From assembly GCA_029260755.1 (NCBI GenBank), contig JAJDCQ010000115.1:24929-88928 (forward strand): DNA of 64,000 nucleotides, given 5' to 3'. The DNA comes from Planctomycetota bacterium (GTDB taxonomy: Bacteria; Planctomycetota; J058; JAJDCQ01). Within the stretch, counting starts at the first letter, position 1, and the number at the start of each line of letters is the position of its first letter. The notes under the pieces are model-generated. The model was given only the letters and a program-made list of their open reading frames with translations, made no database searches and was not told where the DNA came from. The translations under genes and the position numbers were made by a program. Below are positions 1,256 to 51,789 of the stretch, in pieces.

Positions 1256-1401
1256 GACGGGCTCGATGATGGCGGGGGGACGGCCGGGATGTCCAGACCG
1301 GACGCGCTGCGGAGTTCATCGACGGTGGGGTGGGGGGTTGTGTTTCGTGGATTCGCGCGGTCGAGGTCTTCGATCTTCGCGAGGACTTCGCACGCGCGGG
1401 G

Positions 1402-1496
1402 TGCAATCCGCGTAATCCGCGTAATCCGCGGTTCGGTCTCTCTCGGCGCTCGACCGAGTGGGAACCGCGGATTACGCGGATTACGCGGATTGCACC
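1402..1496. repeat. Palindromic intergenic repeat element, copy 1 of 4, built from (AATCCGCG)n arms
   Basis: gcAATCCGCGTAATCCGCGTAATCCGCGG is followed by a ~34-bp core (ttcggtctctctcggcgctcgaccgagtgggaa) and then the inverted arm CCGCGGATTACGCGGATTACGCGGATTgc. Copies lie at ~15496, ~37100 and ~51699. Confidence 0.7.
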
Positions 1497-1553
1497 GCGT
1501 AGCGCGGCTCGTCTTGCCGCGGCGGGCGCCGTCGAGTCGGGAGAGGTCTCGTC

Positions 1554-2438
1554 CTAGAACGCATCCCCGAGCCGCCCCCGAACCCCGCCGCCCCGGTAGA
1601 CGACGTCGCCCACCCCCTCGATCCACGCCTTCTCGTCCGCGTCCATCGGCCCGCGCTTCATCGCGTCCAGGGCGTGGCGGAGCTCGGCGCCGTCGCGGGC
1701 GCCGGTGATGCAGACGTCGGTCCAGTCGTTCGAGAGGGCGAAGCGGTAGCAGTCGCCCGCGGTCGGGGTCTTGCTTCCCTCGGGCCCGCCGGCGACCGGG
1801 CGCAGGAGCTGGCCCCATCGCGTCGCCGTGAACGCGACCAGGCCGGCGCGCTCCTCGCGCGGGGCGAGGCCGGGGAAGATGTCCTTCTCCGCGCCTCGGT
1901 GGGCGGCGTTGTAGCGGAAGTGGATGACGTCGACGCCCGAGCCGGGGGCGGCGAGCTTCGCGGCGAGCGGTCGCTCGTGGGTGCTCACGCCGACGTGGGC
2001 GGTCAGGCCGGCGTCCCGGCAGCGGAGGGCGGCGTCGAGGATCCGTCGGCTCGGCGCCTTGTTCCACCAGCCGAGCAGCAGCAGGTCGGCCCGCTCGATC
2101 CCGAGGCGCCTGAGCGCCCAGCAGAGGCTCGGACGGACGAAGCTGCCGAGCCGGCTGTAGCTCTGGACCACGACGAAGAGGTCGTCGCGCCTGCCGCGGG
2201 CGGTCAGCGCGCGGATCGCGCCGGCGAAGGCGCGCGTCCGCATCGAGCCCCAGTAGAGGTAGCCGACGCCGTGCTCCTCGACGGCCGCCTCGAGGTCCGC
2301 GCCGCCCACGCCGAAACTGGCCGCGACGCCGAGGGGGTGGATCGTCCGTCCGGTGCGCCCGAGGGTGCGCCGGGCGAAGGGGAGCGACGCGTCGCTCGCT
2401 TCCTCGGGGACTCGCGGTGTCGTCGAGGTGGTCGACAT
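1554..2438 (-). CDS. Aldo/keto reductase family oxidoreductase
   Basis: 294-aa product resembling the aldo/keto reductase (AKR) (beta/alpha)8-barrel family (GYLYWGS..., IHFRYN...). Confidence 0.75.
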   Translation of the reverse strand: MSTTSTTPRVPEEASDASLPFARRTLGRTGRTIHPLGVAASFGVGGADLEAAVEEHGVGYLYWGSMRTRAFAGAIRALTARGRRDDLFVVVQSYSRLGSFVRPSLCWALRRLGIERADLLLLGWWNKAPSRRILDAALRCRDAGLTAHVGVSTHERPLAAKLAAPGSGVDVIHFRYNAAHRGAEKDIFPGLAPREERAGLVAFTATRWGQLLRPVAGGPEGSKTPTAGDCYRFALSNDWTDVCITGARDGAELRHALDAMKRGPMDADEKAWIEGVGDVVYRGGGVRGRLGDAF

Positions 2439-2465
2439 CGATCGGGCCGGGGCGGCGGAGGACGC

Positions 2466-3005
2466 CTAGTTCTCGGCTCGCCGCGGCGAGAACAGGGTCA
2501 GGGTGATCGTCGCCTTGCGCCAGAGGCGGTCGTCCTTCGGGTCCCGCGTCGCGACCACGTCCTTCACCTTCAGCCCGGGCCACTCGTTCTGGCAGTCGAA
2601 CAGGAAGTCGGTGAGCTGCTTCATGTCGATGTCGTCGATGCTCACCTGGAACGACGCCTCGTTGAACGCGCCGACCGGGCGGGGGCGTTGCGGCTGGAAG
2701 TTCTTCAGGTCGAGCCCGCGCTTGTTCAGGAGCGAGATGATGAAGCTCTGGAGCTGGGCGACCTTCTTCGGATCCTTCCGGGCCTTCCGCTCGAGGAGGA
2801 TCCACTCGCGCAGCTGCTCGTCCTTCTCCGCGAACTGCTTCATGTTCTCGAGGTTCGAGACCTCGCGCTTCAGCTTCCCCTGCTGCTCGCTGTAGCGTGT
2901 CCAGAGGAGCACGCCGAAGCAGGCGACGATCGTCGTCAACACGACCATCATCATGATGAAGAAGCGGAGGAGGTCGAATCCCTGTCCCGGGGGGCGCGCG
3001 CTCAC
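2466..3005 (-). CDS. GspM/PilO-like inner-membrane assembly protein of a T2SS/T4P-like machine
   Basis: 179 aa with a short cytoplasmic N-terminus, one TM helix (FFIMMMVVLTTIVACFGVLLW) and a coiled-coil/periplasmic domain. It is the last gene after the gspK- and gspL-like genes and overlaps the upstream gene by 4 nt. Confidence 0.45.
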   Translation of the reverse strand: MSARPPGQGFDLLRFFIMMMVVLTTIVACFGVLLWTRYSEQQGKLKREVSNLENMKQFAEKDEQLREWILLERKARKDPKKVAQLQSFIISLLNKRGLDLKNFQPQRPRPVGAFNEASFQVSIDDIDMKQLTDFLFDCQNEWPGLKVKDVVATRDPKDDRLWRKATITLTLFSPRRAEN

Positions 3006-4705
3006 GACTCGGTCCCCTCGATCACCTCGACCTTGATCGTGAAGTCCCAGCCGCCCTTGGTGTTCTTTCCGAAGCGCTCGACCTTCGCCCGCACGACCTT
3101 GCTCGTGTTGTTGACCGCCTGCTCGATCAGGGCGGGGATCTCGTTGCTGTCGGCCGTTCCCGCGATCGTCGATCGCTCCTGACCGACCGTGAGCTGCTTG
3201 ATCGTCACGTTGCCCTGGTAGGGCTTCATCCCGCGGCAGAACTCGGCGAGGATGTCGAGGGCGCTCAGCTTGAAGACGCGCTTGATGTCGTCGGTCTCGC
3301 CGTAGCGCTGCTCGAGGGTGTACTTCTGATCCTGCCAGATCCGGTAGCGGTCCCGGTCGGCCGGGATCTCGCCGAGCTCGGGGAACATAGTCAGCAGGAG
3401 CACGTCCTGCTCGAGCTGCGCCCGCTCCCGCTTGATCCCGATCCGCTCGAGCTCGACCTTGAAGCCGTAGGCGACGACGAACAGGAGCAGGAAGGTCAGG
3501 CAGAGGGTCGCCGCGACGCCGCGCCGCACCCGCTCGAACTTGCCCTGGAACGAGAACTCATCCCGCCGGAAGTCGAAGCCGCCCGCGTCGTGGCCGAGCG
3601 CCTTGAGGGCCAGGCCGACCGGGATCGGCGCCTGGAAGTCGACCGTCTCCTTGTCGACCCGGGCCTGGTCGGCCGGGATCAGCTCCGAGAGCTCGATCCG
3701 CTGGCTCGGGATCTCGAAGTGCTCCTCGAAGAGCCCCTCGATCCCCTCGAGGGTGCAGCTCGCGCCGGTGAGCGCGATCAGGTCGACGTCGTCGGCCGCG
3801 TGGGTCGCCGCGAGGGTCCGGTCGATCTCGAGGAAGATCTTCTGGAGGTAGTTCTCGCGCTCGACCTCGGTGATCTGGCTGTCCTCGAGCCGGAACCCGG
3901 CCGCCTCCTCGCTCCCGTCGTCGAGGATCACGACCGGGAGGCGCGAGCTGTCGGCGCGCATCTCGTGCGCGTCCTCGGAGTCGTCGAGGCCGTCGTCGAA
4001 GGCGTCCGCGCGGCCGCTCAACCGGGCGCTCTGACGGCCGGAGCGGCTGCGGGCGCCCCGCTGCATGATCGCGCCGAGCCGCATCCGGACGCTCCGCGCG
4101 GCCAGGAGACGCCCCCCCTGGACGAGGAGGAGCTTGAGGGTGTCGGCCTCGATGTCGACGACGAGGACGACGCCCTTGTCGGCGAACAGGCCGCCGACCT
4201 CGTAGGCGTTGAAGAGCGCCGCCACGTCGAGGTCGAGGGCCGAGGGATCGACGCTCACCTCGCCGAGGAGGTGGAGCTGCCGCTCGATGTGCGTCTTCTT
4301 CAGGCCGGCGACGAGCAGCCGGCTCTTCCCCTCGAGCTCCTCGATCTTGTACCACTGCAGGACGAGGTCGTCGATCGCGACCGAGTGGAAGTGACTCTCC
4401 GCCTGGAAGCGGATCGTCTTCTGGATCTGCTCGTCCCGGGTGAACGGCACGGTGATCTCGCGGATCACGCAGTCCTGCGCCCGGATGCTCGCGACCACCG
4501 GCGTCCGGGGGAGCTTGTGGCGGCGGAAGATCTCGCGGAGGACCCCGATGATGTCGACGTCGCCTGGCGGGATCTCGCCGGCGCCCTCGCCCGCCTGCGC
4601 CATCTTCTGGACGACGAAGTCGCGGATGCGGAAGCGCGCGCCGGTCCCCTCGACGAGGACGGCCTTGACGGCGTTGGAGGTGATCTCTAGCCCGACGGCG
4701 CGCAT
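3002..4705 (-). CDS. GspL-like protein: PilM-type actin-like cytoplasmic domain, TM helix and PilN-like periplasmic domain
   Basis: 567 aa. The N-terminal ~360 aa resemble PilM/GspL actin-like ATPase-fold domains, followed by a TM helix (VAATLCLTFLLLFVVAYGF) and a periplasmic C-terminal domain. Synteny with the gspK-like gene supports the call. Confidence 0.55.
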   Translation of the reverse strand: MRAVGLEITSNAVKAVLVEGTGARFRIRDFVVQKMAQAGEGAGEIPPGDVDIIGVLREIFRRHKLPRTPVVASIRAQDCVIREITVPFTRDEQIQKTIRFQAESHFHSVAIDDLVLQWYKIEELEGKSRLLVAGLKKTHIERQLHLLGEVSVDPSALDLDVAALFNAYEVGGLFADKGVVLVVDIEADTLKLLLVQGGRLLAARSVRMRLGAIMQRGARSRSGRQSARLSGRADAFDDGLDDSEDAHEMRADSSRLPVVILDDGSEEAAGFRLEDSQITEVERENYLQKIFLEIDRTLAATHAADDVDLIALTGASCTLEGIEGLFEEHFEIPSQRIELSELIPADQARVDKETVDFQAPIPVGLALKALGHDAGGFDFRRDEFSFQGKFERVRRGVAATLCLTFLLLFVVAYGFKVELERIGIKRERAQLEQDVLLLTMFPELGEIPADRDRYRIWQDQKYTLEQRYGETDDIKRVFKLSALDILAEFCRGMKPYQGNVTIKQLTVGQERSTIAGTADSNEIPALIEQAVNNTSKVVRAKVERFGKNTKGGWDFTIKVEVIEGTES

Positions 4706-4774
4706 GGGTCGCTAGCTACTCTTGGTCCTTGATCCGGTCCGGTGGTGAGATGACGTGCGAGGGGGTGCCCCGGT

Positions 4775-5302
4775 TCAGGGGGGCGGCCGGAACGTGATCG
4801 CGTGCTCCTGCCCGCCCCGCTTGTCGAGGAAGACGATCCGATACTCCTCGGCGTCGCCATCGCGGCGCTCGATCCGCTTCAGCTCGAACCCGTCGAGCTC
4901 GTCGCCGGGGCTCGCCTGCGACTGGCCTCCGCCCTTGGACCGCTTCCGCTTCAGGAGACAGCTCTGGTAGCGATCGGTGTAGAGGACCGCGGCGACCTCG
5001 AACACCTGCTCGATCTTCGGCGTCGGCGGCTTCGGCGGCTCCTTCGGCCCGGTGTTCACCGGCGCGGGCGGCGGCGGCGGCGTGTAGCCGAGGACGCCGG
5101 GGATCACCGCGTACTCGGCGATCCCCTTGTGCTGCGCGTCCTCCTGGATCTCGAGGCGTCGCTCGTCGACGATCGGGACGACGATCGCGCCCTCGACGGT
5201 GCGCGGGTCGGTCATGAAGACGGTGTACTCGACCGCGACGATCGCGAAGGCGATGCCGACGTTCAGGACAACGATGAGGACTCGGGCGAGGCTCGGCGTC
5301 AC
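4775..5302 (-). CDS. Hypothetical membrane-anchored protein inside the gspK-L-M module
   Basis: 175 aa with an N-terminal TM helix, a Pro-rich linker (PPPPPAPVNTGPKEPPKPPTPK) and a C-terminal domain. It lacks a prepilin-peptidase motif, so it is not a pseudopilin. Confidence 0.4.
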   Translation of the reverse strand: MTPSLARVLIVVLNVGIAFAIVAVEYTVFMTDPRTVEGAIVVPIVDERRLEIQEDAQHKGIAEYAVIPGVLGYTPPPPPAPVNTGPKEPPKPPTPKIEQVFEVAAVLYTDRYQSCLLKRKRSKGGGQSQASPGDELDGFELKRIERRDGDAEEYRIVFLDKRGGQEHAITFRPPP

Positions 5303-5309
5303 GCGGGGC

Positions 5310-6413
5310 TCACTCCGGGATCTCTCGCCACGCGATCACCTCCATCGCGTCGCCGTGGCGGCGGATCGTCGCCGCCGCGCGCTTGAAGACGACCGGGCTG
5401 CGCGCCTCGATCGACACCCGGAAGTGGTAGCTGGTGACCGAGAGAACCTTGTCGAGCGAGACCGTCGCCTCCTCGCCCTCGCCCGAGCCGCTGCCGCTCC
5501 CGCCCTCGCCGCCGCCCTGGCCGCCGCCTTCGCTCGGCTCGAAGAGCTGCTTGAGCTGCGGGATGCTCGAGGCGAGCTCGGAGACCTCGGCGAACTCGTT
5601 TCCGTCGGGGAGCTCGCCCGGCTCCTCGCCCGGCTTGGCCGGCTCGGGATCGCCCCGGAACTGGACGATCGCCTCGACGGCCGCGTCGCGGTCGATCGGC
5701 TTGTCGTCCTTGTCCTTCTCCGGGAGGATCGCGAAGAGGACCTCCGCGGAGGCCGTGTTGATGTTGATCTTCCCGGCCGAGAGGATCGTCAGGAAGTCGA
5801 GCAGCCCGGGGATCCGCTCGCCCGTCTCCTCATCGAACCTCCCGTGGAGCGTCTCCGGCTCGATCTCGGGGATCTGCTCGAGCTCGCTGATGTCGAGGAG
5901 GCGCCGATTGAGCGCGCCCTCCTCGTAGTCGCCCTCCTCGTCGGGGTCGACGAAGTCGATCAGGCGCTCGGCGACGTTCTCCTCCTCGGTCTCGATCTTG
6001 GTCGCCAGCGCCGTGAGGAACGTCTTGATCAGCTCGGCCTTCTTCTCGTCGTGAAGGAGGTTGACGTCGATCCGGCGCTCGGTGTCCACCAGGCTCACGA
6101 TCACCGGGATGTCGCCGACCGTGGCGTCGGTCTCGAACGCGGTCTCGGCGCGCGCCCAGTCCTCACGGATGCTGTCGACCTCGGTCTGGCTCTGATCGTC
6201 GCGGAGGACCGCCTTCGCCCACGCGACTCCGCCGAGCGCCGCGTAGTAGGCGCGGTCGTCGGCGAGGAAGTTGCCGACGAGGCGCTCCTCGATCTTCGCG
6301 GAGTAGGTGAACTGGATCACCAGGACGATCAGGACCGACAGGACGAGGAGCGAGAGGACCAGCGCGACGCCGCGGTCACCGGTTCGCCGGGAGGCTCGAG
6401 TGGGGTGCTGCAT
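5310..6413 (-). CDS. gspK: Type II secretion minor pseudopilin GspK-like protein
   Basis: N-terminal hydrophobic segment RGVALVLSLLVLSVLIVLVIQF is typical of GspK, and a helix-hairpin-helix ININTASAEVL is present. The listed ORF extends to 6503; I placed the start at the Met of MQHPTRASRRTGDRGVALV, which is uncertain. Confidence 0.55.
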   Translation of the reverse strand: MQHPTRASRRTGDRGVALVLSLLVLSVLIVLVIQFTYSAKIEERLVGNFLADDRAYYAALGGVAWAKAVLRDDQSQTEVDSIREDWARAETAFETDATVGDIPVIVSLVDTERRIDVNLLHDEKKAELIKTFLTALATKIETEEENVAERLIDFVDPDEEGDYEEGALNRRLLDISELEQIPEIEPETLHGRFDEETGERIPGLLDFLTILSAGKININTASAEVLFAILPEKDKDDKPIDRDAAVEAIVQFRGDPEPAKPGEEPGELPDGNEFAEVSELASSIPQLKQLFEPSEGGGQGGGEGGSGSGSGEGEEATVSLDKVLSVTSYHFRVSIEARSPVVFKRAAATIRRHGDAMEVIAWREIPE

Positions 6414-6620
6414 GAGGGCTCGCGTTCGGGGTGGGTTGGGTGGGCGGTCTCGAAGGACCCGTCCCATCTCCGACGCTCCGCGTCCTGGGAGGTTCATTGG
6501 CATTGGGGCATCATCAATGCACCCGGTGGGAATCCGGCCGCCGGACCGCTCCTTCCCGCCGTGTGGACAGCAGGTTAGCGACTCGGCGCGGCGCCGGCAA
6601 GGTCCTTCTCCGGCGTCCGC

Positions 6621-8408
6621 CTAACTTCGCCCTGATGGGCGTCGGCCCTGGCCGCTCGCGAGGTCCTTCCGGACCGACGTGATCAGGCGGGCGATCTCGA
6701 ACTGGAGGTGGGCGACCTCGGCCATCGCGCTGGTGATCTCGCTCAGGTACTTGAAGGTCACGTAGAGAAACGCGCCCATGATGAATCCGCCGAGCGCCCC
6801 GAAGAGCTTCACCTCGGCGGGGAACTGGGGGACCGCCACGCTGGCCGCGGAGACGACGAGGCCGAGCAGGCCGAGGATGTAGGCGAAGAACAGGAGGACG
6901 TCGGCGATCTCCTTCAGGCGCCCGACCCGCGGCGAGTCGGGCATGATGGAGTCCTGGGAGGCGGCGGCCGCCCCGGCCTCGGCCTCCTCGGGCTCGTAGG
7001 AAGCCTCCGCGGCGCGACCCTGGCCGGGGTCCGGCCGGCGCGCATCGGCGGCCGCCGGTCGCCGGGCGGAGCCCTTGTCGCTGGCGGTCCGACTGGAGGC
7101 GCCCCCCTTGCTCCGGGCGCTGGCCGTGCGCTTGGCGGGCGGCGGGGACGCGCTCGGACGGGCGATGGGCACCCCGCGCGGCGGCGTCGGCGCGTCCGAG
7201 CCGATCTCCGGCAGTCCCTCGCGACGCGAGTCGCTCGGGCCGGCGGGATCGTGGGCCACCGGCTCGCGGAGCTCGGTCGCCGGAGCCTTCCCGGCGCCGC
7301 CCTTCTTCTTCTTCGCGTCGACCTTCCCCGAGCTCGCGCCCCTGGGGCGCTCGATCCGGCGGGCCTTGCGGGCGACGGCGGCGTCGGGCTTCGCCGCCTT
7401 CTTCGCCTCGGCGGGCTTGGCCTCGGCGGGCATCGCGTCGGCGGGCTTCGCGTCGGCAGGCTTGGCGTCGGCAGGCTTCGCGTCGTCGTCGGGCTCGGCC
7501 GCCTCGGGCGTCGGCTCCGGCTTCCCGGCGGACCCGGCGGCCTCGGACGACTCGTCGGGCTGCGGCGCCGGGCTCGCCTCGGCGGTGATCTCGGCCTCGG
7601 CCGTGGTCGCGGCCGTCTCTGTCTCGGTCGCGATCCCGTCGCTTCCCTCCTGGAGCGTCTCGCCGCTCGGAGGAACGACCGGCGTCGGGAACGCGAACTC
7701 GGTCGCCTTCGACGCGAACGATGCGTTCGGCGAGCCCTCGTCGAGCGTCTCGTCGGCGCCGAAGTCGGGCTCGGCGTCGGGGACCGACGCGTCGTGGGCC
7801 GTCTCGCCGGGGTCGGGGCTCTCCGCCTCCTCGCCGGGCTCGTTCGCCTCGTCGGCGCCCTCCGCACCGCCGTCGGTCTCCTCCTCGTCATCGTCCGGCG
7901 CCATGTCGGCGACCGAGTCGTGATTCCGGGCGACGCCGATCGTCGCCGTCGCGATCTCGAAGACCGAGTCCGTCGAGCCCTCGCCCGGCGCGGGCGGCCC
8001 GCCGGACTCGCCTTCGCGAACGGGGACATCGCCCGCGGGCTCGAGTAGATCGTCGGAGACCTCCGGGGCGGCCGCCGCCTCGTCGGCGACGACCGCGACG
8101 CCGCCGCCGCTCGCCGTCGCCGCGGCGCCGTCGCCCTCGCCGGCGACCTGCGCTTGCGCCTGCGCCTGCGCCTCGACCGGGTCCTGCGTCTCGAGGCGCT
8201 CGAGCAACGCGAGCCGCTCGAGGTCGCGCTCGCGCTGCTTGCGGAGGGCCTCGGCGGCGACCTCCTTCTCCTCGAGCGCGCGAAGATCGTCCGCCGAGAT
8301 CAGGCGGTTCTTGTGCCCGCAGCTCGGACACGCGATCCGCTGTCCTCGCATCTCATCGGGGGCGCTCAGGACCTGGTGGCAGCTGACGCACCGGTTCTTG
8401 ATCGCCAT
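6621..8408 (-). CDS. Zinc-ribbon protein with a long acidic low-complexity region, (AKPAD)n repeats and a C-terminal double TM anchor
   Basis: The N-terminus has CVSCHQ...x17...CPSCGH, a C-x2-C...C-x2-C zinc ribbon. The central region is D/E/A/P-rich with AKPADAKPADAKPADAMPAEAKPAEAKK, encoded by a 15-nt tandem repeat at ~7400-7480. Two C-terminal hydrophobic helices follow. Start is placed at the internal Met of MAIKNRC. Confidence 0.5.
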   Translation of the reverse strand: MAIKNRCVSCHQVLSAPDEMRGQRIACPSCGHKNRLISADDLRALEEKEVAAEALRKQRERDLERLALLERLETQDPVEAQAQAQAQVAGEGDGAAATASGGGVAVVADEAAAAPEVSDDLLEPAGDVPVREGESGGPPAPGEGSTDSVFEIATATIGVARNHDSVADMAPDDDEEETDGGAEGADEANEPGEEAESPDPGETAHDASVPDAEPDFGADETLDEGSPNASFASKATEFAFPTPVVPPSGETLQEGSDGIATETETAATTAEAEITAEASPAPQPDESSEAAGSAGKPEPTPEAAEPDDDAKPADAKPADAKPADAMPAEAKPAEAKKAAKPDAAVARKARRIERPRGASSGKVDAKKKKGGAGKAPATELREPVAHDPAGPSDSRREGLPEIGSDAPTPPRGVPIARPSASPPPAKRTASARSKGGASSRTASDKGSARRPAAADARRPDPGQGRAAEASYEPEEAEAGAAAASQDSIMPDSPRVGRLKEIADVLLFFAYILGLLGLVVSAASVAVPQFPAEVKLFGALGGFIMGAFLYVTFKYLSEITSAMAEVAHLQFEIARLITSVRKDLASGQGRRPSGRS

Positions 8409-8492
8409 GCGGGGTCGGTCCGGAAGACGAGGGCGGGAGAGGCGGCGGGCGGAGCGGCCCGAACGTCCTTCTATCATGCCGCTGGATGGCGA

Positions 8493-15380: not shown

Positions 15381-15495
15381 TCTCGTTCGCGCCTTTCTTT
15401 CACGACTGACTGACTCACCGCCGCGGCGGTCGTCCCATCCGGGCCGACCGCCGCGCGCGTGTACGGCGGCGACTTGGCACTGACCGAAGGCAGTC

Positions 15496-15581
15496 CGCGC
15501 AATCCGTGAAATCCGCGGTTTCGTTCTCCCGTCACGAGCCGGGTGGAACCACGGATTTCGCGGATGACGCGGATTGCGAGC
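15496..15581. repeat. Palindromic intergenic repeat element, copy 2 (diverged)
   Basis: gcgcAATCCGTGAAATCCGCGG, then a core, then CCACGGATTTCGCGGATGACGCGGATTGCGAG. It has the same architecture as the copy at 1402. Confidence 0.6.
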
Positions 15582-15800
15582 TGCAGGCTCCAAGTCCATT
15601 GCCGACGATCCGCCGGTCTCGACTCGCAAATCCGTGGGATCCATGCATCCGTCGATCGAAACCGATCGAAGGGGCGCGCCTCGATCGCCCCCGCCCCGCG
15701 GCTTGCCCGCGTCTCTCTCTCAGTGTTAGATGCCGCCCTGCCCGCGAGCCCACCGTAGGTTCCGAAGCCGACCGACCCGACCGATCTCCGGAGGCATCCG

Positions 15801-16906: not shown

Positions 16907-16982
16907 GCCCGCAAACCAGCCGTCCTTAACGTAACCGCGACGCTCACGCTAACGTCCAGCGTGCGGAGGAGATAGGGCGAAC

Positions 16983-19900
16983 ATGGCGAATCCAGCGCCG
17001 AGAGGGTTCCGAGAAGGTCCGTACGACATCGGGACTCTGAACAAGGTCTTCGCGGTCTCCAGCATCGCGATGCTCATCTCGCTGGTTCTGCTCGTCTGGG
17101 ACGACTACGCCCGCGAGTGGAAGCACGTGCAGGGCGAGTTCCGCGAGATCGAGATCGAGCGGGCCGAGACCGCTCTGGCCGCGGAGCGTGCGCGGCTCGA
17201 GGCCGAGGACGCGAAGCGCCTCGGGGAGCTCGAGGCCGCCCTCGCCGCCGGCGAGAAGTCGATCGCGTCGAGCGAGTCCGAGATCGCGCGGATCGAGGCC
17301 GAGATGCGGCTCACGAACGCGACCGTCCAGCGACTCGGGCTCGACTACGCCAACCTCAAGTCCGAGGTCGACGCCCTCGACTACGAGATCTCGGTCTACG
17401 ACGAGCACCACGACCCCCGCCAGGATGGCGCCGTCACCCGCCGCAAGCGGATGAAGGCGGAGCTCGACGCGATCTTCATCGCGAAGGAAGAGGCGGACAC
17501 GACCCTCCTCGCGCAGAAGGAGGCGCTCGCGAAGGTCTACGCGACGAAGACCGAGGCCGAGGCCGCCCTCGCCGAGATCAACACCGAGGCGGTCCGTCTC
17601 GAAGGCGCCCTCGACAAGATCGCCCACAAGGTGATCAACGATCTCATGCTCGACGCGCCGCTGCTCGACTTCGTCGCGCCGACCCTCAAGATCGACCAGA
17701 TCGTCCTGCCCCATCTCCAGGACGACCTCTACTTCGCGAAGATCTACAAGGTCGACCGCTGCCAGACCTGCCATCTCGCGATCGATCGCGCCGGTTACGG
17801 TGAGGAGGTCCCCGAGGTCTTCCGGACGCACCCGAACCTCGACCTCTACATGTCGGCCACCTCGAAGCACCCCAAGGGCAAGTTCGGGTGCACGATCTGC
17901 CACGACGGGATGGGCCACGCGGTCGATTTCGTCCGCGTCGCGCACATGCCCGACGTCGAGCCGCTCGACAAGAGCCATCAGCCGGCCGACGACGATCACG
18001 TCGGCGGCGGCGGCCACGGCGGCGAAGGCTGGTTCGACCGCCCCGACCGCGAGCGCTGGCACGAGGAGCTCGACTGGCACCAGCGCCACCACTGGGCGGA
18101 GCCGATGGTCCCGCTCTCGCTCGTCGAGGCGCGTTGCATGAACTGCCACGCGACCAACCGGCCGCTCGAGGGCGCCGACACGCTCAACGCCGCCCGCAAG
18201 ACGATGGAGAAGGCCGCCTGTTACGGCTGCCACAAGATCCGCGGCTACGATGCGATGCCGAAGCCGGCGCCGCCGCTCACCCACGTCGGCGACAAGCTCG
18301 ACCACGACTGGGTCTTCGCCTGGCTCAAGAACCCGCGCCACTTCCGGCCGTCCACCTACATGCCGCGGTTCTTCGACCTCGACAACGTCGATGAGATCGA
18401 GCGCTACGGGGAGGAGGCGATCTTCTACCCGGCGCGCCAGAACCTCGAGGCGCTCGCGATCACCGACTACCTCTACTCGGTCTCCGGCAACCGCGGCTAC
18501 CAGACGGTGGACGGCGGCGACGCCGAGGCCGGTGAGGCCTCCTTCCACGAGCTCGGTTGCGCCGCGTGCCACGTCAACGACGGCAGCCCGCTCTCCGAGA
18601 CCGACGCGACCCAGGAGTACGGTCCCGAGCTCTCGCGCATGGCCGAGAAGCTCGCATCCGGCGGCGGCGCGACGTGGGTATACAACTGGGTCCGCGACCC
18701 GAAGCACTACTACGCCGACGGCAACATGCCGAACCTGCGGCTCACCGAGGACGAGGCGAAGGACATCGCCGCCTACATCACGTCGCTGAAGAAGAACGGG
18801 GCCGCGAAGGCGACCGTGCCCTTCGCCCTCGACGACGGGATCGACACCTCGGGCACCGACCCGCGCACCTACCGGGACATGCTCCGCGCCCTCGCGATCG
18901 AGCACCTCCGCGATCGCCTCACCGCGAGCGCCGCCGAGAAGGAGATCGGGCGCTGGAAGGCGGAGGCCGGCACCGACGCGAAGCTCGACGCGCGCCTCAT
19001 GAGCTACGTCGGCGAGCGGACGATCAATCACTACGGTTGCTTCGGCTGCCATGACATCCCGGGCTTCGAGGGACGGCTGGGCATCGGCGCCGAGCTCTCG
19101 ACGATCGGCAGCAAGATCCTCAGCCAGTTCGATTTCGGCCACGTCGCGATCGAGCACTCGCGGATGGACTGGATCGCGCAGAAGCTCGACGAGCCGCGGA
19201 TCTTCGACGTGACGAAGATCAAGGCCCCGCGCGACAAGCTGAAGATGCCGAAGTTCGGGTTGACGAAGGAGGAGGTGAAGGCGATCACCATGTTCCTCCT
19301 CGGCCTGACCGATCGTGAGGTCGGCCCGCACTACGAGTACAACCCCGGCGAGCGCCAGCGGGCGCTCACCGAGGGGCGGCACCTCATCGAGGACAAGAAC
19401 TGCATCGCGTGCCACTACTTCGAGGTGCCTCAGTGGAGCCTGGTCCTCGAGCGCGACGCGACCGAGGACGAGCCCGCCGAGCGGCGTGAGATCTCGTTCC
19501 AGGGACTCAAGCTCCTCGACACGCGGCCGCTTCAGAGCTTTGATTACCACGAGGCGGCCGAGGAGGGCGAGGATCCGCTGGTCGACCCCGAGGAGCCGAT
19601 CCCGTTCCCGGTCAACTTCGAGCTCTGGAGCGCGGTTCCGAGCCTCGGTCTGCCTGCCGGCGCGACGTTGAATCTCACCTACAACGCCCCGCCCAAGACG
19701 CCGGAAGAGGACTACGAGCCCGAGCCGACCTGGCTCCTCGAAGCCGGCGCCGAGTCGATCGGCTTCGACCGGGTCGACATGATCAAGTCCGGCGGTCTCG
19801 GCGGTCGCCTGGCCGAGCAGGTCACGAGGCGGGCGCTCCTCGACGCGGACGGGATCGATCTCGAGAACCTGGTCGAGACGGCCGCGGGCGAGAACGAGCT

Positions 19901-20993
19901 GACGCCCGAGGACCTCTTCGGCGACTACGGCCCGATCGTGATCGCGAGCCGGTCGTTCATCCCGCCCGTCCTCAACGACGAGGGCGAGAAGGTCCAGCCG
20001 CGCTGGGTCGCCGACTTCCTCCGCGAGCCGTACACCCTGCGACCGCAGGTGGCGGTGCGGATGCCGAACTTCCACCTGAGCGAGACGCAGATCCGGACGC
20101 TCTCGGACTACTTCCAGGCGAAGGCCGAGCTCGACCTGATCGCCCAGACCGAGCAGGCGCTCGGCGTCGACCCGGACGGCGCCCTGATCGCCGGGTCGAT
20201 CAAGGCTCGGGTGAAGGAGGGAGCGTACGTCGGCAAGTTCGCGCAGCTCACCACCGACATCCAGAAGGTGCTCGCCGACAACGGCGCCGAGCACTTCTTC
20301 CAGCTCAGCTTCACCGAGTCGGCGCTCAACTGGACGATCAACCCCGCGCTGCTCCGACACGACCCGATGTCGGTTCGTCACGAGGAGCAGTACCTCCTCG
20401 AGCGTGAGAAGAAGCACCCGGGCTGGCTCTCGCTCGGACGCGAGCTCTTCGAGGACGCGAGCATCAACTGCGCCTCGTGCCACGTTCAGCAGGGTCGTCC
20501 GCCCGGCGGCGAGCCACGGACGTGGGCGCCCGATCTGGGGCGCGTTCGGTTCCGCCTCACCCCGTCGTGGGTCGAGCGCTGGATCGCGAACCCGAAGAAG
20601 ATCGTCCCCAGCACGAACATGCCGTCGCTCTTCCCGGTCGGGGAGAAGCGATACCAGGAGATCCTTCCGCTCTCACGGGAGGAGCAGATCGCGGCGATCC
20701 GCGACTACCTCATGACGGGCCTCGTCGGCGGCGTCGAGTCGGTGCCGCGGGATCCGAAGGCCGGCTCCGACGTCGTCGTGACCAGCTCGGCGATCGATCT
20801 GGCCAGCGTGACGTCGGTCAAGTTCGGGGACCGTGCGGTGAATGAGGGCGACGCAGGCTTCGTCCGAGTCAAGGGCCGCGGAGGCCGGACCACCGCCCTC
20901 CGCGTGCGGGTTCCCGCGGGGATCTCGGGCACCGTGTGGCTCGAGTGCACCGACGGACGCTACGTCGCCCGCACCAGAATCGACGTTCAGTAG
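16983..20993 (+). CDS. Membrane-anchored octahaem c-type cytochrome (1336 aa) with an N-terminal coiled-coil and a C-terminal beta-rich domain
   Basis: Eight CxxCH motifs (CQTCH, CTICH, CMNCH, CYGCH, CAACH, CFGCH, CIACH, CASCH). An N-terminal TM helix is followed by a ~200-aa coiled-coil. Third-position GC bias supports the + strand. Confidence 0.8.
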   Translation: MANPAPRGFREGPYDIGTLNKVFAVSSIAMLISLVLLVWDDYAREWKHVQGEFREIEIERAETALAAERARLEAEDAKRLGELEAALAAGEKSIASSESEIARIEAEMRLTNATVQRLGLDYANLKSEVDALDYEISVYDEHHDPRQDGAVTRRKRMKAELDAIFIAKEEADTTLLAQKEALAKVYATKTEAEAALAEINTEAVRLEGALDKIAHKVINDLMLDAPLLDFVAPTLKIDQIVLPHLQDDLYFAKIYKVDRCQTCHLAIDRAGYGEEVPEVFRTHPNLDLYMSATSKHPKGKFGCTICHDGMGHAVDFVRVAHMPDVEPLDKSHQPADDDHVGGGGHGGEGWFDRPDRERWHEELDWHQRHHWAEPMVPLSLVEARCMNCHATNRPLEGADTLNAARKTMEKAACYGCHKIRGYDAMPKPAPPLTHVGDKLDHDWVFAWLKNPRHFRPSTYMPRFFDLDNVDEIERYGEEAIFYPARQNLEALAITDYLYSVSGNRGYQTVDGGDAEAGEASFHELGCAACHVNDGSPLSETDATQEYGPELSRMAEKLASGGGATWVYNWVRDPKHYYADGNMPNLRLTEDEAKDIAAYITSLKKNGAAKATVPFALDDGIDTSGTDPRTYRDMLRALAIEHLRDRLTASAAEKEIGRWKAEAGTDAKLDARLMSYVGERTINHYGCFGCHDIPGFEGRLGIGAELSTIGSKILSQFDFGHVAIEHSRMDWIAQKLDEPRIFDVTKIKAPRDKLKMPKFGLTKEEVKAITMFLLGLTDREVGPHYEYNPGERQRALTEGRHLIEDKNCIACHYFEVPQWSLVLERDATEDEPAERREISFQGLKLLDTRPLQSFDYHEAAEEGEDPLVDPEEPIPFPVNFELWSAVPSLGLPAGATLNLTYNAPPKTPEEDYEPEPTWLLEAGAESIGFDRVDMIKSGGLGGRLAEQVTRRALLDADGIDLENLVETAAGENELTPEDLFGDYGPIVIASRSFIPPVLNDEGEKVQPRWVADFLREPYTLRPQVAVRMPNFHLSETQIRTLSDYFQAKAELDLIAQTEQALGVDPDGALIAGSIKARVKEGAYVGKFAQLTTDIQKVLADNGAEHFFQLSFTESALNWTINPALLRHDPMSVRHEEQYLLEREKKHPGWLSLGRELFEDASINCASCHVQQGRPPGGEPRTWAPDLGRVRFRLTPSWVERWIANPKKIVPSTNMPSLFPVGEKRYQEILPLSREEQIAAIRDYLMTGLVGGVESVPRDPKAGSDVVVTSSAIDLASVTSVKFGDRAVNEGDAGFVRVKGRGGRTTALRVRVPAGISGTVWLECTDGRYVARTRIDVQ

Positions 20994-21041
20994 CGGTCCA
21001 GGCGACCGCTCGGCCCGGGAGCTCGGGCCGAAGGAGGAGAG

Positions 21042-21782
21042 ATGGTGAAGAGGTTCCTGACCGCCGCGATCGCGGCGACGATGATCCTGGGCGCGACGAG
21101 CGTGTTCGGGGCGCCTCCCGGCTACGACGCGGTCGAGGTGAAGGACGGCGGCACGATCAAGGGTCGCGTGGTCTTCGGCGGCGACGCCCCCGAGCGCAAG
21201 AAGCTCGAGGTGACCAAGGATCACGAGGCGTGCGGCAAGGATGCCAAGCTGAGCGACGAGCTCACCGTCAACGCCGAGAACAAGGGCATCCAGTGGGCCG
21301 TCGTCTACGTCAAGAAGATCAAGAAGGGCAAGGCCTGGCCCGAAGGCAGCATGAAGCAGACCTACGACCAGAAGGCCTGCGTCTTCACCGAGCACGTCAA
21401 GGTCATCCCCGTCGGCTGCACCCTCGAGATGAGCAACTCCGACGCGGTCCTCCACAACGTGAAGGCCGCGAGCATGAAGACCAACTTCAACGAGTCGATC
21501 CCCGCGAACGACAAGATCGAGCAGACGTTCAACTTCGACGAGCAGGTCAAGCTCGAGTGCTCGGTCCACCCGTGGATGAGCAGCTACCTCTTCGTCAGCG
21601 AGCACCCGTACGCGGTCGTCACCGACGCGGACGGAAACTTCGAGCTGACCGACCTCCCCAAGGGCAAGTACAACATCATCGCCTGGCAGGAGACGCTCGG
21701 GAAGCACGACAAGAAGGGCGAGAAGGTCGAGATCAAGGGTGGCGACACCCAGGAGCTCGAGCTCAAGTTCGAAGGCAAGTAG
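21042..21782 (+). CDS. Periplasmic cupredoxin (amicyanin/plastocyanin-like type-1 copper) protein with a C-terminal CarbopepD_reg-like beta-sandwich
   Basis: Signal peptide present. AVLHNV and LECSVHPWM match the amicyanin ligand set PHNV...C-x2-H-x2-M. The C-terminus DADGNFELTDLPKGKYNI resembles carboxypeptidase-regulatory-like domains. Confidence 0.5.
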   Translation: MVKRFLTAAIAATMILGATSVFGAPPGYDAVEVKDGGTIKGRVVFGGDAPERKKLEVTKDHEACGKDAKLSDELTVNAENKGIQWAVVYVKKIKKGKAWPEGSMKQTYDQKACVFTEHVKVIPVGCTLEMSNSDAVLHNVKAASMKTNFNESIPANDKIEQTFNFDEQVKLECSVHPWMSSYLFVSEHPYAVVTDADGNFELTDLPKGKYNIIAWQETLGKHDKKGEKVEIKGGDTQELELKFEGK

Positions 21783-21799
21783 CGCCGATCGCCGGCTGA

Positions 21800-21822
21800 G
21801 CGGGGTCGTCACGCGACCCCGC
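21800..21822 (+). terminator. GC-rich stem-loop (9-bp stem, 5-nt loop) between the cupredoxin and Rieske genes; possible attenuator or mRNA processing/stability element
   Basis: gcggggtcg-tcacg-cgaccccgc is a perfect 9-bp inverted repeat. No U-tract follows. Confidence 0.25.
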
Positions 21823-21845
21823 CGGTCCGGTTCGGAGGAAACCAG

Positions 21846-22604
21846 GTGGCAGACAACGAGTCCGCCGGCGCGGCGAAGCCCGCCGACGACGCGAAAGACG
21901 CACCCGCGAAGCCCGAGGCGGCGGCGAAGGAAGCCGCCGCCAAGGCCGATGCGGGCAAGGCGGTCAGCGAACCGGCGGCCAAGGCCCCGGCGGCCAAGGC
22001 GCCCGCCGCGAAGAAGCCCGTCAAGAAGGCGGTGAAGAAGGCGGCCAAGCCGAAGAAGGCCAAGGCGAAGAAGGAGCCGCTCCCGCCCGCGCTCATCCCG
22101 GTCGGGCGTCGCGACTTCCTCTCCTGGGTCGGCGTCGGCTGGGGCGCCATGCTCGCGAGCGCGGCCGTCAGCGGCGCGGTGCTTCAGCGCTTCCTGTTCC
22201 CGAACGTCCTCTTCGAGCCGCCGACCACGTTCACCGTCGGCTTCCCGGACGAGTACGGCGACGGCGTCCACGTGAAGTGGAAGGGCGCCTACGGGATCTG
22301 GCTCGTCCGGACGCCCAGGGACGATGTGCACGAGAAGCCGGGCTTCTACGCGCTGTCGGTCATCTGCACCCATCTGGGCTGCACGCCCAACTGGCTCTCC
22401 GCCGATCTCAAGTTCAAGTGCCCGTGCCACGGCAGCGGTTTCCGCCAGACCGGGATCAACTTCGAGGGCCCGGCGCCGCGTCCGCTCGAGCGGCACCGCA
22501 TCGTCTGGGCTCCCGACGGCCAGATCATGGTCGACAAGGGCAAGAAGTACCAGCAGGAGCTGGGACAGTGGGCCGACCGCGAGGCGTTCCTCGCTTACGG
22601 CTAG
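21846..22604 (+). CDS. Rieske [2Fe-2S] iron-sulfur subunit of a cytochrome bc/b6f-type complex
   Basis: CTHLGC and CPCHGS boxes are present, with an N-terminal Ala/Lys-rich extension and a TM anchor. Confidence 0.85.
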   Translation: MADNESAGAAKPADDAKDAPAKPEAAAKEAAAKADAGKAVSEPAAKAPAAKAPAAKKPVKKAVKKAAKPKKAKAKKEPLPPALIPVGRRDFLSWVGVGWGAMLASAAVSGAVLQRFLFPNVLFEPPTTFTVGFPDEYGDGVHVKWKGAYGIWLVRTPRDDVHEKPGFYALSVICTHLGCTPNWLSADLKFKCPCHGSGFRQTGINFEGPAPRPLERHRIVWAPDGQIMVDKGKKYQQELGQWADREAFLAYG

Positions 22605-22687
22605 GCTGACCCGGGTAGAGACACTTCGTCGCACGGCGTCGTCCAGGGGGGAAGGCGCCACACGCTCCTCGCAGCGAGACCGAATCG

Positions 22688-23473
22688 ATGGCTCTGACAG
22701 ACAAGCTCGTGAGTACGGTCACCGAGTCGCAGGTCTGGAAGTCGATCTTCCGGCACGGCATGCCGGACACCCCACGCAACCAGGCGCTGGCGGTGCTCTC
22801 GAACGTCTTCCTTCACCTGCACCCGATCAAGGCCAGGAAGAGTGGGATCAAGCTCCAGTACACCTGGTGCATGGGCGGGATCTCCTTCTTCCTGTTCCTC
22901 GAGCTGGCGGTGACCGGCATCCTCCTCATGTTCTACTACCGGCCGACGGCCGAGTACGCGTACATGGACATCGAGGCGCTCGGCGACCACGTGCCGATCG
23001 GGATCATGCGTGAGCTCCACCGATGGGGCGCGCACCTGATGGTCCTGGCGGTGTGGCTCCACATGTTCCGGGTGTTCCTCACGGGATCCTACAAGCCACC
23101 GCGGGAGTTCAACTGGGCCGTCGGCGTCATTCTGTTGACGCTCACCCTGCTGCTCTCCTTCACCGGGTACCTGCTTCCGTGGGACCAGCTCGCGATCTGG
23201 GCCATCACCGTCGGGTCCAACATGGCTCGAGCGACCCCGTTCCTGGGACACGAGGGCCCCGGCGCGTCGCTCCTGATGCTGGGGGACATCCCGCTGGTTC
23301 ACGCGGGAGACGATGCGAGATTCGGGCTGATCGCTGGCCGGGCCGTCGGTGAGGCGGCTCTCCTTCGCTTCTACGTCCTGCACTGCATCGCGATCCCGTT
23401 CGTCGTCATGATCCTGATCTCGATCCACTTCTGGCGAGTCCGCAAGGACGGCGGGATCTCTGGACCTCTGTAG
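22688..23473 (+). CDS. Cytochrome b6-type subunit (N-terminal cytochrome b domain)
   Basis: 261 aa with four TM helices and haem-ligand His residues in the cytochrome b N-domain pattern (RELHRWGAHLMV..., LPWDQLAIWA). Confidence 0.85.
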   Translation: MALTDKLVSTVTESQVWKSIFRHGMPDTPRNQALAVLSNVFLHLHPIKARKSGIKLQYTWCMGGISFFLFLELAVTGILLMFYYRPTAEYAYMDIEALGDHVPIGIMRELHRWGAHLMVLAVWLHMFRVFLTGSYKPPREFNWAVGVILLTLTLLLSFTGYLLPWDQLAIWAITVGSNMARATPFLGHEGPGASLLMLGDIPLVHAGDDARFGLIAGRAVGEAALLRFYVLHCIAIPFVVMILISIHFWRVRKDGGISGPL

Positions 23474-23570
23474 ACGAACCGACGCATCGGTCGTCCTCGG
23501 GGGGAGGGCGGCGGCTCGAGTCAGCACGCAGACCTAGCGACGCTCGCTAGATCCTCTTTCGGAGAATGGA

Positions 23571-32062: not shown

Positions 32063-32440
32063 CCCGGATAGGGGCCATCGGGCTCGCCTTCGGCGAGCAG
32101 ATGGCACCACGGAGGCACGGAGACACGGAGAAGCGACTGCGTGCGCCGTATCCCGGCTCGGACCGAGCCGACCGGCTCCAGGGATGGCTGGCTCCCTCTC
32201 GGTCTCGGTCGCGCGAGGCGACGGGAACCAAGAGAAGGAGGAAGGAGCGGCGGGGTCCGTGCGCGACGTGGCGTCATCCGAAGCTGCTCCGTGCCTCCGT
32301 GCCTCCGTGGTTCCATCTCTCATCGACCTGAGGACGAGCCGAGTGCGCGCGGGGCGTCCGGTTATCCGACGAACCTCGATGCAACCCCCGTCATCGCCAC
32401 CAGTTGACATCGACCCAGCCAAAACCCCACAACCCCAGAC

Positions 32441-36942: not shown

Positions 36943-37099
36943 TGATGATCGATCGGCTCACGCAGCGGCGCAGAGTCGGCTTCGCCGACGATTTCTCACG
37001 CCAGGGACGCCAAGGGGCCAAGGCCGCCAAGGGTCCCGACTCGAACATTGGCGGGCTTGGCGTGACCGTGACGCGTCGGCAATGGCTCGGCGACGCCCG

Positions 37100-37196
37100 A
37101 ATCAATCCGAGCAATCCGCGAAATCCGCGGTTCGGTCTCTCTCGGCGTTGAGCCCAGTGGGAACCGCGGATTACGCGGATTACGCGGATTGCGAGT
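37100..37196. repeat. Palindromic intergenic repeat element, copy 3
   Basis: atcAATCCGAGCAATCCGCGAAATCCGCGG, then the core ttcggtctctctcggcgttgagcccagtgggaa, then CCGCGGATTACGCGGATTACGCGGATTGCGAG. Confidence 0.7.
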
Positions 37197-37332
37197 TGCC
37201 GGGTCCGGATTCATTGCCGTTGCGCGGGCCGTTCCAAAGGGCCGAAGGGGTCAGGTCTCGGATCTTCGCATCAAGGCCACCGTTGCAAGGATCCGAGACC
37301 TGGCGCGTGGGCTCTTTCGGCGCCGCCAACGA

Positions 37333-51617: not shown

Positions 51618-51698
51618 CGTCGACGCGCGCTTTCATTGCTGACGACGTCGCGCGCTTGATGACCCCATCGCCGTGTGAGAACCCGAACCCTGGCGACT

Positions 51699-51789
51699 CG
51701 TAATCCGCGTAATCCGCGTAATCCGCGGTTCCCACTGGTTCAACGCCGAGAGAGACCGAACCGCGGATTTCACGGATTGCACGGATTGA
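51699..51789. repeat. Palindromic intergenic repeat element, copy 4 (inverted orientation)
   Basis: cgTAATCCGCGTAATCCGCGTAATCCGCGG, then the core in reverse-complement orientation relative to copies 1 and 3, then CCGCGGATTTCACGGATTGCACGGATTG. Confidence 0.7.

Follow-up and report, generated by a model that had tools for sequence, protein, structure and literature searches.

We examined a 64,000-nucleotide stretch of the genome of a Planctomycetota bacterium (contig JAJDCQ010000115.1, positions 24,929 to 88,928; hereafter the window) and found that it carries four short intergenic elements, each consisting of two inverted arrays of a 9-nt unit around a short core. The arrays that form the arms of these elements correspond to a sequence module that, in other bacterial lineages and in viral contigs, brackets genes of the GxxExxY family, which encode small proteins predicted to adopt a PD-(D/E)XK nuclease fold. 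Given that the arm module brackets GxxExxY genes, the window elements appear to represent gene-less forms of a probably mobile repeat system that is largely undescribed. Our favored interpretation, to which we assign a probability of roughly 45%, is that the window elements are non-autonomous and resemble repetitive extragenic palindromic (REP) sequences and their hairpin-forming doublets (REPINs), and that they belong to a widespread repeat system in which GxxExxY occupies the role of the REP-associated tyrosine transposase (RAYT).

A previous, sequence-only reading of the window had proposed a family of palindromic intergenic elements with four copies, and all four were confirmed, with refined boundaries at positions 1400–1496, 15490–15577, 37104–37190 and 51702–51787. 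That reading had described the arms as two to three tandem octamers; analysis with Tandem Repeats Finder instead gave a period of 9 bp, corresponding to one variable base followed by AATCCGYG, and there are exactly three units in every arm. Each element can be written as (nAATCCGYG)x3-GTTC, ~25 nt of core between GTTC and GAAC, and GAAC-(CRCGGATTn)x3, with the inner end of every arm reading GGTT(C/T). The conserved block spans ~85–91 bp, and the inverted arms are 27–30 bp long in all four copies, such that the elements have the terminal inverted repeats that define miniature inverted-repeat transposable elements (MITEs). In copy 1 (plus strand) the forward array comprises three AATCCGCG units at 1405–1430, the core lies at 1431–1465 (GTTCGGTCTCTCTCGGCGCTCGACCGAGTGGGAAC), the inverted array lies at 1466–1491, and the palindrome continues outward through GGTGC and GCACC. 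In copy 2 (plus strand) the forward array occupies 15493–15517 (AGTCCGCG, AATCCGTG and AATCCGCG), the core 15518–15549 and the inverted array 15550–15574, whereas the corresponding positions in copy 3 (plus strand) are 37104–37129, 37130–37164 and 37165–37190. Copy 4 lies on the minus strand, with its core at 51728–51761, in agreement with the inverted core that had been noted for it; the cores measure 32–35 bp, close to the ~34 bp that had been estimated. Copies 1, 3 and 4 are 0.89–0.95 identical to one another (copies 3 and 4 being 0.95 identical), and copy 2, as had been recognized, is diverged (0.77–0.78 identity to the others). The sequence AATCCGCG occurs 19 times in the window, compared with 5.25 ± 2.4 times in shuffled sequences (shuffle maximum 12), and 17 of these 19 occurrences fall inside the four elements; the 19-nt start of the core, GGTTCGGTCTCTCTCGGCG, occurs exactly three times, compared with an expectation of 0.24. 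All four copies lie between genes supported by the GC content of their third codon positions, and the peptide NPRNPRNPRF is, as had been suspected, spurious, being simply the in-frame reading of AAT CCG CGT ... CGG TTC. The feature is real and not an artefact, and it is REP-like and MITE-like in its behavior while being a member of neither family as these are defined.

The window copies show the behavior of mobile DNA that has dispersed, with high internal identity, flanks at background similarity, cores in both orientations, intergenic placement, and contigs that break within them. In particular, the 100-nt flanks of the different copies are 0.51–0.64 identical, which is background, as against 0.77–0.95 inside the elements. 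Short-read contigs of the same organism (Logan, SRR15505512), which we found by exact-protein look-up, include one that ends in the core of copy 4, another that starts in the right arm of copy 1, and a third that, by coordinate arithmetic, starts at 1468 inside copy 1 and reads straight through the diverged copy 2. Because these contigs break inside copies 1 and 4, as contigs do at multi-copy repeats, they indirectly support repetition of the element across the genome, and together with the unrelated flanks and the strong predicted hairpins described below they bear out the earlier proposal of a dispersed palindromic family. No new copies were present in the ~1.6 kb that the Logan contigs added beyond the window. 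The organism has no close relative in the databases (the best non-self homologue of a flanking gene, encoding an FGE-sulfatase, is 40–47% identical), a metagenome scan with the window core returned a single partial and uninformative match (L029), and a blastn search of plasmids with copy 1 returned no match.

The arms, unlike the core, can be followed well beyond this organism. We scanned one genome per GTDB species with a pattern that contained only the innermost unit of each arm (AATCCGYGGTT, 20–50 nt, AACCRCGGATT) and recovered at least 26 loci, six of which (L006, L007, L009, L013, L018 and L025) were excluded from the 26 listed as plain hairpins or other repeats. At 16 of the listed loci the arms extend outward as ATCCGYG units at an exact 9-nt register, usually with three units per arm, and four further loci contain partial arrays. 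The outer two units, which were absent from the search pattern, show ATCCGYG at 56–85% per position, and a three-unit arm is the norm among 26 elements drawn from the window and the 16 other loci. Carriers of the module include Verrucomicrobia (strain LW23, Luteolibacter, Chthoniobacterales and Opitutaceae), Planctomycetota (Pirellulaceae, Planctomycetaceae and Tepidisphaeraceae), Auribacterota, Lentisphaeraceae and Thermoanaerobaculia (Acidobacteriota), as well as metagenome-assembled genomes (MAGs) with the labels Alphaproteobacteria, Burkholderiaceae and Thermoplasmatota; binning may be unreliable for these three. Cores are unrelated between lineages and are shared within one genome (L020/L022, L026, L002). 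The suggestion that the elements are a repeat family of this lineage therefore holds for the core, which is lineage-specific, but not for the arm module, which is common to several phyla and to phage contigs. The basic module is a 30-nt non-palindromic array of three 9-nt nnATCCGYG units ending in GTT(C), and it is found solo, tip-to-tip around a short core (the form present in the window), tail-to-tail, nested, and in clusters of alternating orientation (L023, L015, L017 and L024) that resemble bacterial interspersed mosaic elements (BIMEs). A literature search with AATCCGCG returned no relevant paper. One of the array clusters (L026, 4592–5775, in the MAG labelled Alphaproteobacteria) has as neighbors a pair of genes for MazF/PemK-like toxins and one for a Phd/YefM-like antitoxin, which are probably part of the mobile-region content and there by coincidence.

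The module is also present in viral contigs. A scan with a single-arm pattern (CRCGGATNNCRCGGATNNNRCGGAT) returned at least 120 loci, compared with about one expected by chance by our own arithmetic; some of the listed matches were coding tandem repeats and were excluded, and the arm module itself is present at more than 80 viral-contig loci. An AC tip is present in 86 of the 143 arrays of the listed viral loci, typically in the form ttttAAC-(CACGGATnn)x3. Many of the solo arrays lie directly upstream of a ribosome-binding site and ATG, and the genes downstream of them are unrelated phage genes. On crude gene calls, the orientation of solo arrays with respect to neighboring genes is without bias (16 same, 15 opposite and 25 mixed). 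In one 12.2-kb contig with a GC content of 66% (L170, an IMGVR_UViG contig), six near-identical hairpins of the form TTTTTGAC-(CACGGATnn)x3, a 16-nt loop and (ATCCGTGnn)x3-GTGG occur in 7.4 kb (1380–7480), with approximately one hairpin in each intergenic gap of a co-oriented gene block. A reading of the TTGAC-CACGG... sequence as a σ70 promoter was rejected on the grounds that the –10 position does not fit, and resemblances to DnaA boxes, parS, DNA-uptake sequences and the tRNA T-arm were dropped as too weak.

What links the module to a gene is its position with respect to GxxExxY. Arrays of the AATC type flank a GxxExxY/PDDEXK_3 gene in 15 of the 15 gene contexts that we examined, and most of these have an inverted array at the start codon or close to it and, past the stop codon, a forward array followed by GTT. 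The arrangement is clearest in a Verrucomicrobiae locus (L017) and an Auribacterota locus (L005), in each of which an intact gene of 125–137 amino acids adjoins an element: the start codon abuts the inverted array (..CACGGATGGGG.. and ..GGCGGATTattttATG), and a complete forward-core-inverted hairpin begins 6–12 nt past the stop codon. The encoded protein belongs to PDDEXK_3 (PF13366, E = 6e-32) and to GxxExxY (TIGR04256). By the features of the module itself, the window copies and the gene-bracketing arrays are alike: all eight arms in the window show the same unit, 9-nt period, three-unit length and GGTT(C) end as the proposed GxxExxY-bracketing module, and the same features are present at the borders of the GxxExxY gene in L017, L005, L030, L033–L035 and L049.

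The association was also recovered in the reciprocal direction, with GxxExxY genes picked by protein homology only. All five Verrucomicrobia contexts in this set (three host loci) carry tttAAC-(CACGGATnn)x3 at a distance of 0–6 nt from the ATG, and in four of the five at least two ATCCGTG units and a GTT come shortly after the stop codon, the remaining one (L033b) retaining single units there; these five contexts are mutually related and hence not independent. Related layouts were found in more distant hosts. A Treponema gene has one inverted AATCCGTG unit on each side, a GxxExxY gene on a Fusobacteria plasmid lies between copies of a 52-nt direct repeat containing TTAATCCGTGTA, and AATCC arrays flank the gene in Persicobacter. 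At the start codon of the Ignavibacterium gene, four units form a forward array that ends in GGTTCAGACA, and this array recurs after the gene in direct, not inverted, orientation; the Gracilibacteria gene shows the inverted-array-ATG ... stop-forward-array-GTT layout; and in Caldithrix, AATCCTG-type arrays and hairpins lie 100–200 nt from the gene, not at its borders. Three viral contigs that carry a GxxExxY gene obey the same bracketing rule, including one of 62% GC with ATCCGCG/ATCCGTG units and another in which a TGATT array runs into the ATG and AATCA...GGTTCAGACA follows the stop codon. Two or more units were present within 60 nt upstream of the gene in 7 of the 11 contexts that were scored, compared with 2.3% of control windows from the same loci.

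No gene family other than GxxExxY recurs beside the arrays in the 21 loci considered, and a search of the literature on GxxExxY, PDDEXK_3 and PF13366 found no paper on flanking repeats; the GxxExxY-associated module appears to be so far undescribed. The sequence-only reading had pointed to a RAYT-like gene as the partner to look for. There is, however, no Y1 transposase or other transposase among the ~40 genes of the window, and none recurs beside the arrays in the 21 loci; the gene that is actually associated with the module is that for the PD-(D/E)XK nuclease-fold protein GxxExxY. The GxxExxY cassette of the Ignavibacterium locus (L043) lies between hsdR and hsdS of a type I restriction-modification operon identified with Pfam, and a viral contig (L216) has an apparently similar hsdM/hsdS setting, judged from flanking sequence alone, which suggests that hsd operons are a preferred or tolerated insertion context for these cassettes.

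The GxxExxY protein is ~125 amino acids long and has invariant residues E30, Y33, D69, K81 and Q93, which include a D...(D/E)xK motif. An AlphaFold model is confident (mean predicted local distance difference test score, pLDDT, 90.9) and adopts a PD-(D/E)XK fold. The nearest solved folds are those of the Cas4 protein SSO0001, λ-type exonucleases and Hjc resolvases, all of them generic PD-(D/E)XK neighbors with E ≥ 1e-3, and no solved structure related by sequence to GxxExxY was found. The GxxExxY/PDDEXK_3 family is very large, with ~8,000 relatives returned by one search, and a published survey lists GxxExxY as being of unknown function with 'multiple transfers, mixed clades' (PMC3424549).

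Several loci preserve what look to be the products of rearrangement at the arrays. Downstream of the GxxExxY gene in a second Verrucomicrobia locus (L030) lie units that run from an inverted array through ATGGGAAATATGATTACTGACCTTCATGCCTGA to a forward array, joining the first and last few codons of the open reading frame (ORF); the protein encoded at L017 ends in ...PPDLHA. L017 and L030 are orthologous PilT-GxxExxY-PilT loci, and their alignment shows that the 186 extra nucleotides in L030 are three 62-nt units, each combining GTTCTGAAAT with an ORF-end remnant and then a forward array; their boundaries coincide precisely with the junction of forward array and GTT. The ORF-collapsed units represent the kind of internal deletion that yields non-autonomous elements. 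Elsewhere the DNA between facing array tips derives from host genes: at L015 (7150–7600) the core contains a duplicated 3' end of infA, and at L034 (1200–1500) and L033 (1905–2200) it contains a ~75-nt duplicate of the 5' end of the downstream gene. Because cores contain such duplicated pieces of host genes, the arrays are sites of active rearrangement, and because these fragments lie between facing tips, the process that copies the arrays also carries flanking DNA.

These observations raise the possibility that GxxExxY acts as a nuclease that binds to the units of the arrays and cleaves or recombines the DNA there, perhaps when the arrays are extruded as hairpins or cruciforms. Its action would copy, duplicate and disperse the modules, and the window copies would depend on a GxxExxY gene located elsewhere in the genome. 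There is precedent for such a layout in that the RAYT gene is likewise bracketed by inverted REPs (PMC2817692), and we infer that GxxExxY, in a manner analogous to RAYT, recognizes the units and drives their dispersal, and that it is encoded by the genome from which the window derives.

Several findings weigh against this interpretation. A six-frame profile search found no GxxExxY gene or remnant in the 64-kb window, nor did any such gene come to light for the lineage to which the window belongs. Among the matches listed, the gene is present at only 2 of ~20 array-bearing genome loci and at none of 164 array-selected viral loci (~1.4 Mb, including 120 loci that account for 1.06 Mb and for which the positive controls were found). 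Because few of the genome loci and none of the listed viral loci with arrays hold the gene, arrays evidently exist in bulk with no GxxExxY nearby. The tips of the window arrays face inward around the core, which is the reverse of the outward-facing tips that bracket GxxExxY genes. The flanking units found in phyla of low GC content are reduced to AATCC or AATCA, sequences of little information content. An alignment of the four copies with their flanks revealed no direct repeat at the boundaries, so that target-site duplication, for which the earlier reading had called for a check, was not observed; a possible 7-bp match at the boundary of one copy in L020 is not convincing as such a duplication. 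The strongest point against a purely selfish element is the pattern in viral contig L170, where one hairpin per gap looks like regulatory punctuation.

The great excess of arrays over the gene, and the abundance of arrays in phage contigs with no GxxExxY among the matches listed, would also be expected if the arrays were pre-existing genomic target sites into which GxxExxY genes home as selfish cassettes, such that the window hairpins were unoccupied targets or host elements whose function and spread are independent of the nuclease. The variable distance between array and start codon (0 to ~35 nt) and the insertion of co-oriented cassettes within host operons (PilT–PilT and hsdR–hsdS) fit this explanation as well. 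We nevertheless consider it unlikely. Homing into existing targets leaves unexplained both the conservation of the arrays across phyla and the presence of gene-less copies with identical cores at unrelated sites, and the ORF-deleted derivatives retain both arrays, as expected of the ends of an element.

A role at the level of RNA is, in our estimation, similarly improbable. The elements might be maintained by selection, and not through mobility, with their transcribed 27-bp stems acting as processing sites (for RNase III, for example), as stabilizers, or as non-canonical terminators or insulators. In support of this idea, and as the sequence-only reading had expected, folding predicted very stable hairpins on both strands, with energies of –84 to –48 kcal/mol and z scores of –4.7 to –13 (–84.4 kcal/mol and z = –12.2 for copy 1; z = –7.1 for copy 2). 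Every window copy lies downstream of the 3' end of at least one gene, contig L170 has one hairpin per intergenic gap, and many solo arrays are found just upstream of a ribosome-binding site and ATG. A role as intrinsic terminators is not supported, since there is no U-tract after the stems, no terminator-like site around copy 1, and the sequence that follows the stem is GC-rich. No Rfam family reached its gathering threshold in the window or in eight related loci, and an E-value search of the elements and of the gene-flanking loci gave only sub-threshold, generic matches to models of miRNA hairpins. Structure alone, moreover, fails to explain a 7-nt sequence common to different phyla, a 9-nt periodicity, or solo arrays that are not palindromic; mismatches in the stems are not consistently compatible with G-U pairing on one strand; and orientation with respect to genes is random, both for copies 1 and 2 of the window and for the viral solo arrays (16 same, 15 opposite).

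Less probable still is the possibility that the arms are clustered binding sites, three per arm, for a conserved host protein of the nucleoid-associated or regulatory kind. Operator arrays typically consist of a short motif repeated at a constant register in either orientation, and the independence of orientation from flanking genes is consistent with this idea, but no candidate protein other than GxxExxY was found, a 9-bp period would place successive sites on different faces of B-form DNA, and the identical cores at unrelated loci, together with the contig breaks, point to spread by copy and paste. Finally, that the elements are classical REPs/BIMEs or REPINs mobilized by a RAYT (a Y1 HUH transposase), as first proposed, is very improbable, since, although they resemble REPs and BIMEs in size, in being intergenic, in their potential to form hairpins and in occurring solo, paired and in alternating clusters (L023, L015, L017; PMC2817692, PMC3116915), no Y1_Tnp gene lies in the window or recurs at the 21 array loci, the four copies lack a conserved GTAG or CGTC tag at either end, a lone module consists of tandem units and is not a 20–40-bp palindrome, and REP sequences are specific to a species or genus whereas the unit described here is common to several phyla.

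Comparison with known systems places the elements closest to, and yet outside, several of them. REPs are defined as imperfect palindromes of 20–40 bp with a GTAG or CGTC tag at one end (PMC3733652). The elements share with REPs, BIMEs and REPINs (PMC2817692, PMC3116915, PMC3733652) the occurrence of short intergenic repeats singly, as inverted pairs forming hairpins of ~90–110 nt, and in alternating clusters, with arms better conserved than the spacer and with the gene for an enzyme bracketed by inverted copies of the repeat. They differ in that the module is a triple tandem array of a 9-mer lacking either tag, that it is found in several phyla and in phage contigs, and that the associated gene encodes the PD-(D/E)XK nuclease GxxExxY and not a Y1 HUH transposase, GxxExxY being multi-copy where RAYT is usually single-copy. 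In common with bacterial MITEs (Correia, RPE, Nezha and ERIC), the elements are ~90–150 bp long, have terminal inverted repeats, are intergenic, hairpin-forming, multi-copy and assembly-breaking, and have relatives, in Verrucomicrobia, that are ORF-deleted derivatives of a longer gene-bearing unit; unlike MITEs, they show no target-site duplication, their inverted repeats are composed of tandem sub-repeats, the tips of the window modules point inward and not outward, and the parent unit has no DDE or other known transposase. The gene-bearing units recall integron cassettes and their attC sites in comprising a small promoterless ORF and an imperfect palindrome inserted co-oriented within operons, with the inverted arrays bounded by AAC ... 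GTT and with conserved ends around a variable center. There is, however, no integrase in the window and no attI was seen, half-sites occur alone, the copies are dispersed and not gathered in one array, and each arm is built from three 7-mers with a 9-nt period in place of R and L boxes, with only a sporadic fit to RYYYAAC/GTTRRRY. Intervening sequences of rRNA genes, in which an ORF of ~120 amino acids lies within long inverted repeats that would form a double-stranded RNA stem, also resemble the gene-bearing units. The elements described here differ from these in lying outside rRNA genes, in the lack of an ORF in the window copies, and in the protein family concerned.

The window also contains a fifth, related element (32099–32318, with no strand assigned), which the sequence-only reading had missed. 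It consists of AC-(CACGGAGn)x3 at 32106–32130, a 148-nt interior and (CTCCGTGn)x3-GTT at 32287–32312, with units at an 8-bp period and arms of 36 nt that are 92% complementary. Its tips (AC...GTT) point outward, as do those of the arrays around GxxExxY genes, an arrangement opposite to that of the four other copies. The interior showed no significant similarity to the cores and no match to the GxxExxY hidden Markov model (HMM). Modules of the same CACGGAG type are present at 44 viral-contig loci, seven of which contain inverted-forward pairs 92–130 nt apart, and in five of these seven the interior holds nested inverted triple arrays of other units (CGCAGAT, CACGAAG and GTTTCRAG). Viral contigs also contain chains of modules with the units CGCAGAG, CGCGGAG and CACAGAG, so that the general unit can be given as CRCRGAK. 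At five viral loci (L051, L053, L063, L070 and L071) modules with differing units lie in the same orientation 10–20 nt apart; units observed in such chains include AAC-(CGCAGAGAA)x3, (CACGGATnn)x3, (CACGGAGG)x3 and (CGCGGAG), sometimes joined by remnants of the ATGGGGAA type. Tentatively, and at somewhat worse than even odds, we suggest that all of these may belong to a cross-phylum superfamily of selfish elements, present also in phage contigs, in which a minimal nuclease gene, GxxExxY, is bracketed by inverted triple 9-nt arrays and spawns gene-less modules (solo, tip-to-tip, tail-to-tail, nested and CRCRGAK variants).

A further array had escaped notice: 52 nt beyond the right end of copy 2 there is a degenerate solo forward array on the plus strand at 15629–15653 (AATCCGTG g GATCCATG c ATCCGTC). 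With this third array the region therefore has the order forward-core-inverted-spacer-forward, an alternating, BIME-like cluster, and the inverted-spacer-forward geometry is found in L015, L017, L023 and L024 as well. To the right of the inverted arm of copies 2–4 there is a tail of ~35 nt (GCGAGyTGCcGGgTCC..TtCATTGCCG; 15578–15620, 37191–37230, and 51660–51701 on the minus strand) that is weakly similar among the three copies (0.62–0.68 identity, compared with a background of ~0.55). We considered whether this tail might be a collapsed GxxExxY ORF or a relative of the core and rejected both, as the similarity is weak (0.57–0.70) and there is no HMM match.

The genes that surround the elements, like the ~40 genes of the window as a whole, carry ordinary chromosomal functions according to Pfam scans. 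Copy 1 is flanked by two minus-strand genes, one aldo/keto-reductase-like (with its stop at 1554) and the other clpS, and copy 2 is flanked by two plus-strand genes, one hypothetical (ending at 15380) and the other encoding the FGE-sulfatase (starting at 15801). Copies 3 and 4 each lie between convergent genes, namely those for a MacB/FtsX permease (ending at 36942) and a hypothetical protein (ending at 37333) in the case of copy 3, and those for a GGDEF-AAA-HEAT protein (ending at 51617) and a thioredoxin-like protein (ending at 51891) in the case of copy 4. Because the gene contexts of copy 1, copy 2 and copies 3 and 4 differ in this way, the core has no fixed orientation with respect to transcription. 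In the gap upstream of copy 3, after the MacB/FtsX gene, there is a run of GCCAAGG(G) repeats (36999–37040; Tandem Repeats Finder periods 8, 9 and 17). Tandem repeats of other kinds occur within coding sequence, at 53244–53415 (72-nt period, 2.4 copies, within a 913-codon ORF at 52850–55591), at 7401–7485 (15-nt period, 5.7 copies, within a gene at 6621–8492) and at 21891–22074, where Lys/Ala/Pro-rich repeats with 33-, 15- and 12-nt periods occur in the N-terminal part of a Rieske-domain protein (21783–22604). The gene for the Rieske protein belongs to an unusual respiratory cluster (20994–24653) that includes a split cytochrome b, with separate N- and C-terminal genes, and that is preceded by a gene for a 1346-amino-acid multi-haem cytochrome c protein (16953–20993).

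The link between the module and GxxExxY gives the GxxExxY/PDDEXK_3 family, annotated until now as being of unknown function, a direct substrate hypothesis. It would also flag the module as a source of spurious annotated ORFs (NPRNPR..., TTDYTD...). Were the superfamily suggested above borne out, PDDEXK_3 would be the first family known to serve a REP-like system of repeats as a partner consisting of a nuclease alone. The link would further establish a second kind of REP-like system, one that is independent of RAYT, and would explain a class of assembly-breaking intergenic repeats in bacteria of the Planctomycetes-Verrucomicrobia-Chlamydiae (PVC) group and in their phages. Should the modules instead prove to be regulatory RNA or DNA punctuation that is common to hosts and phages, they would be of interest likewise.

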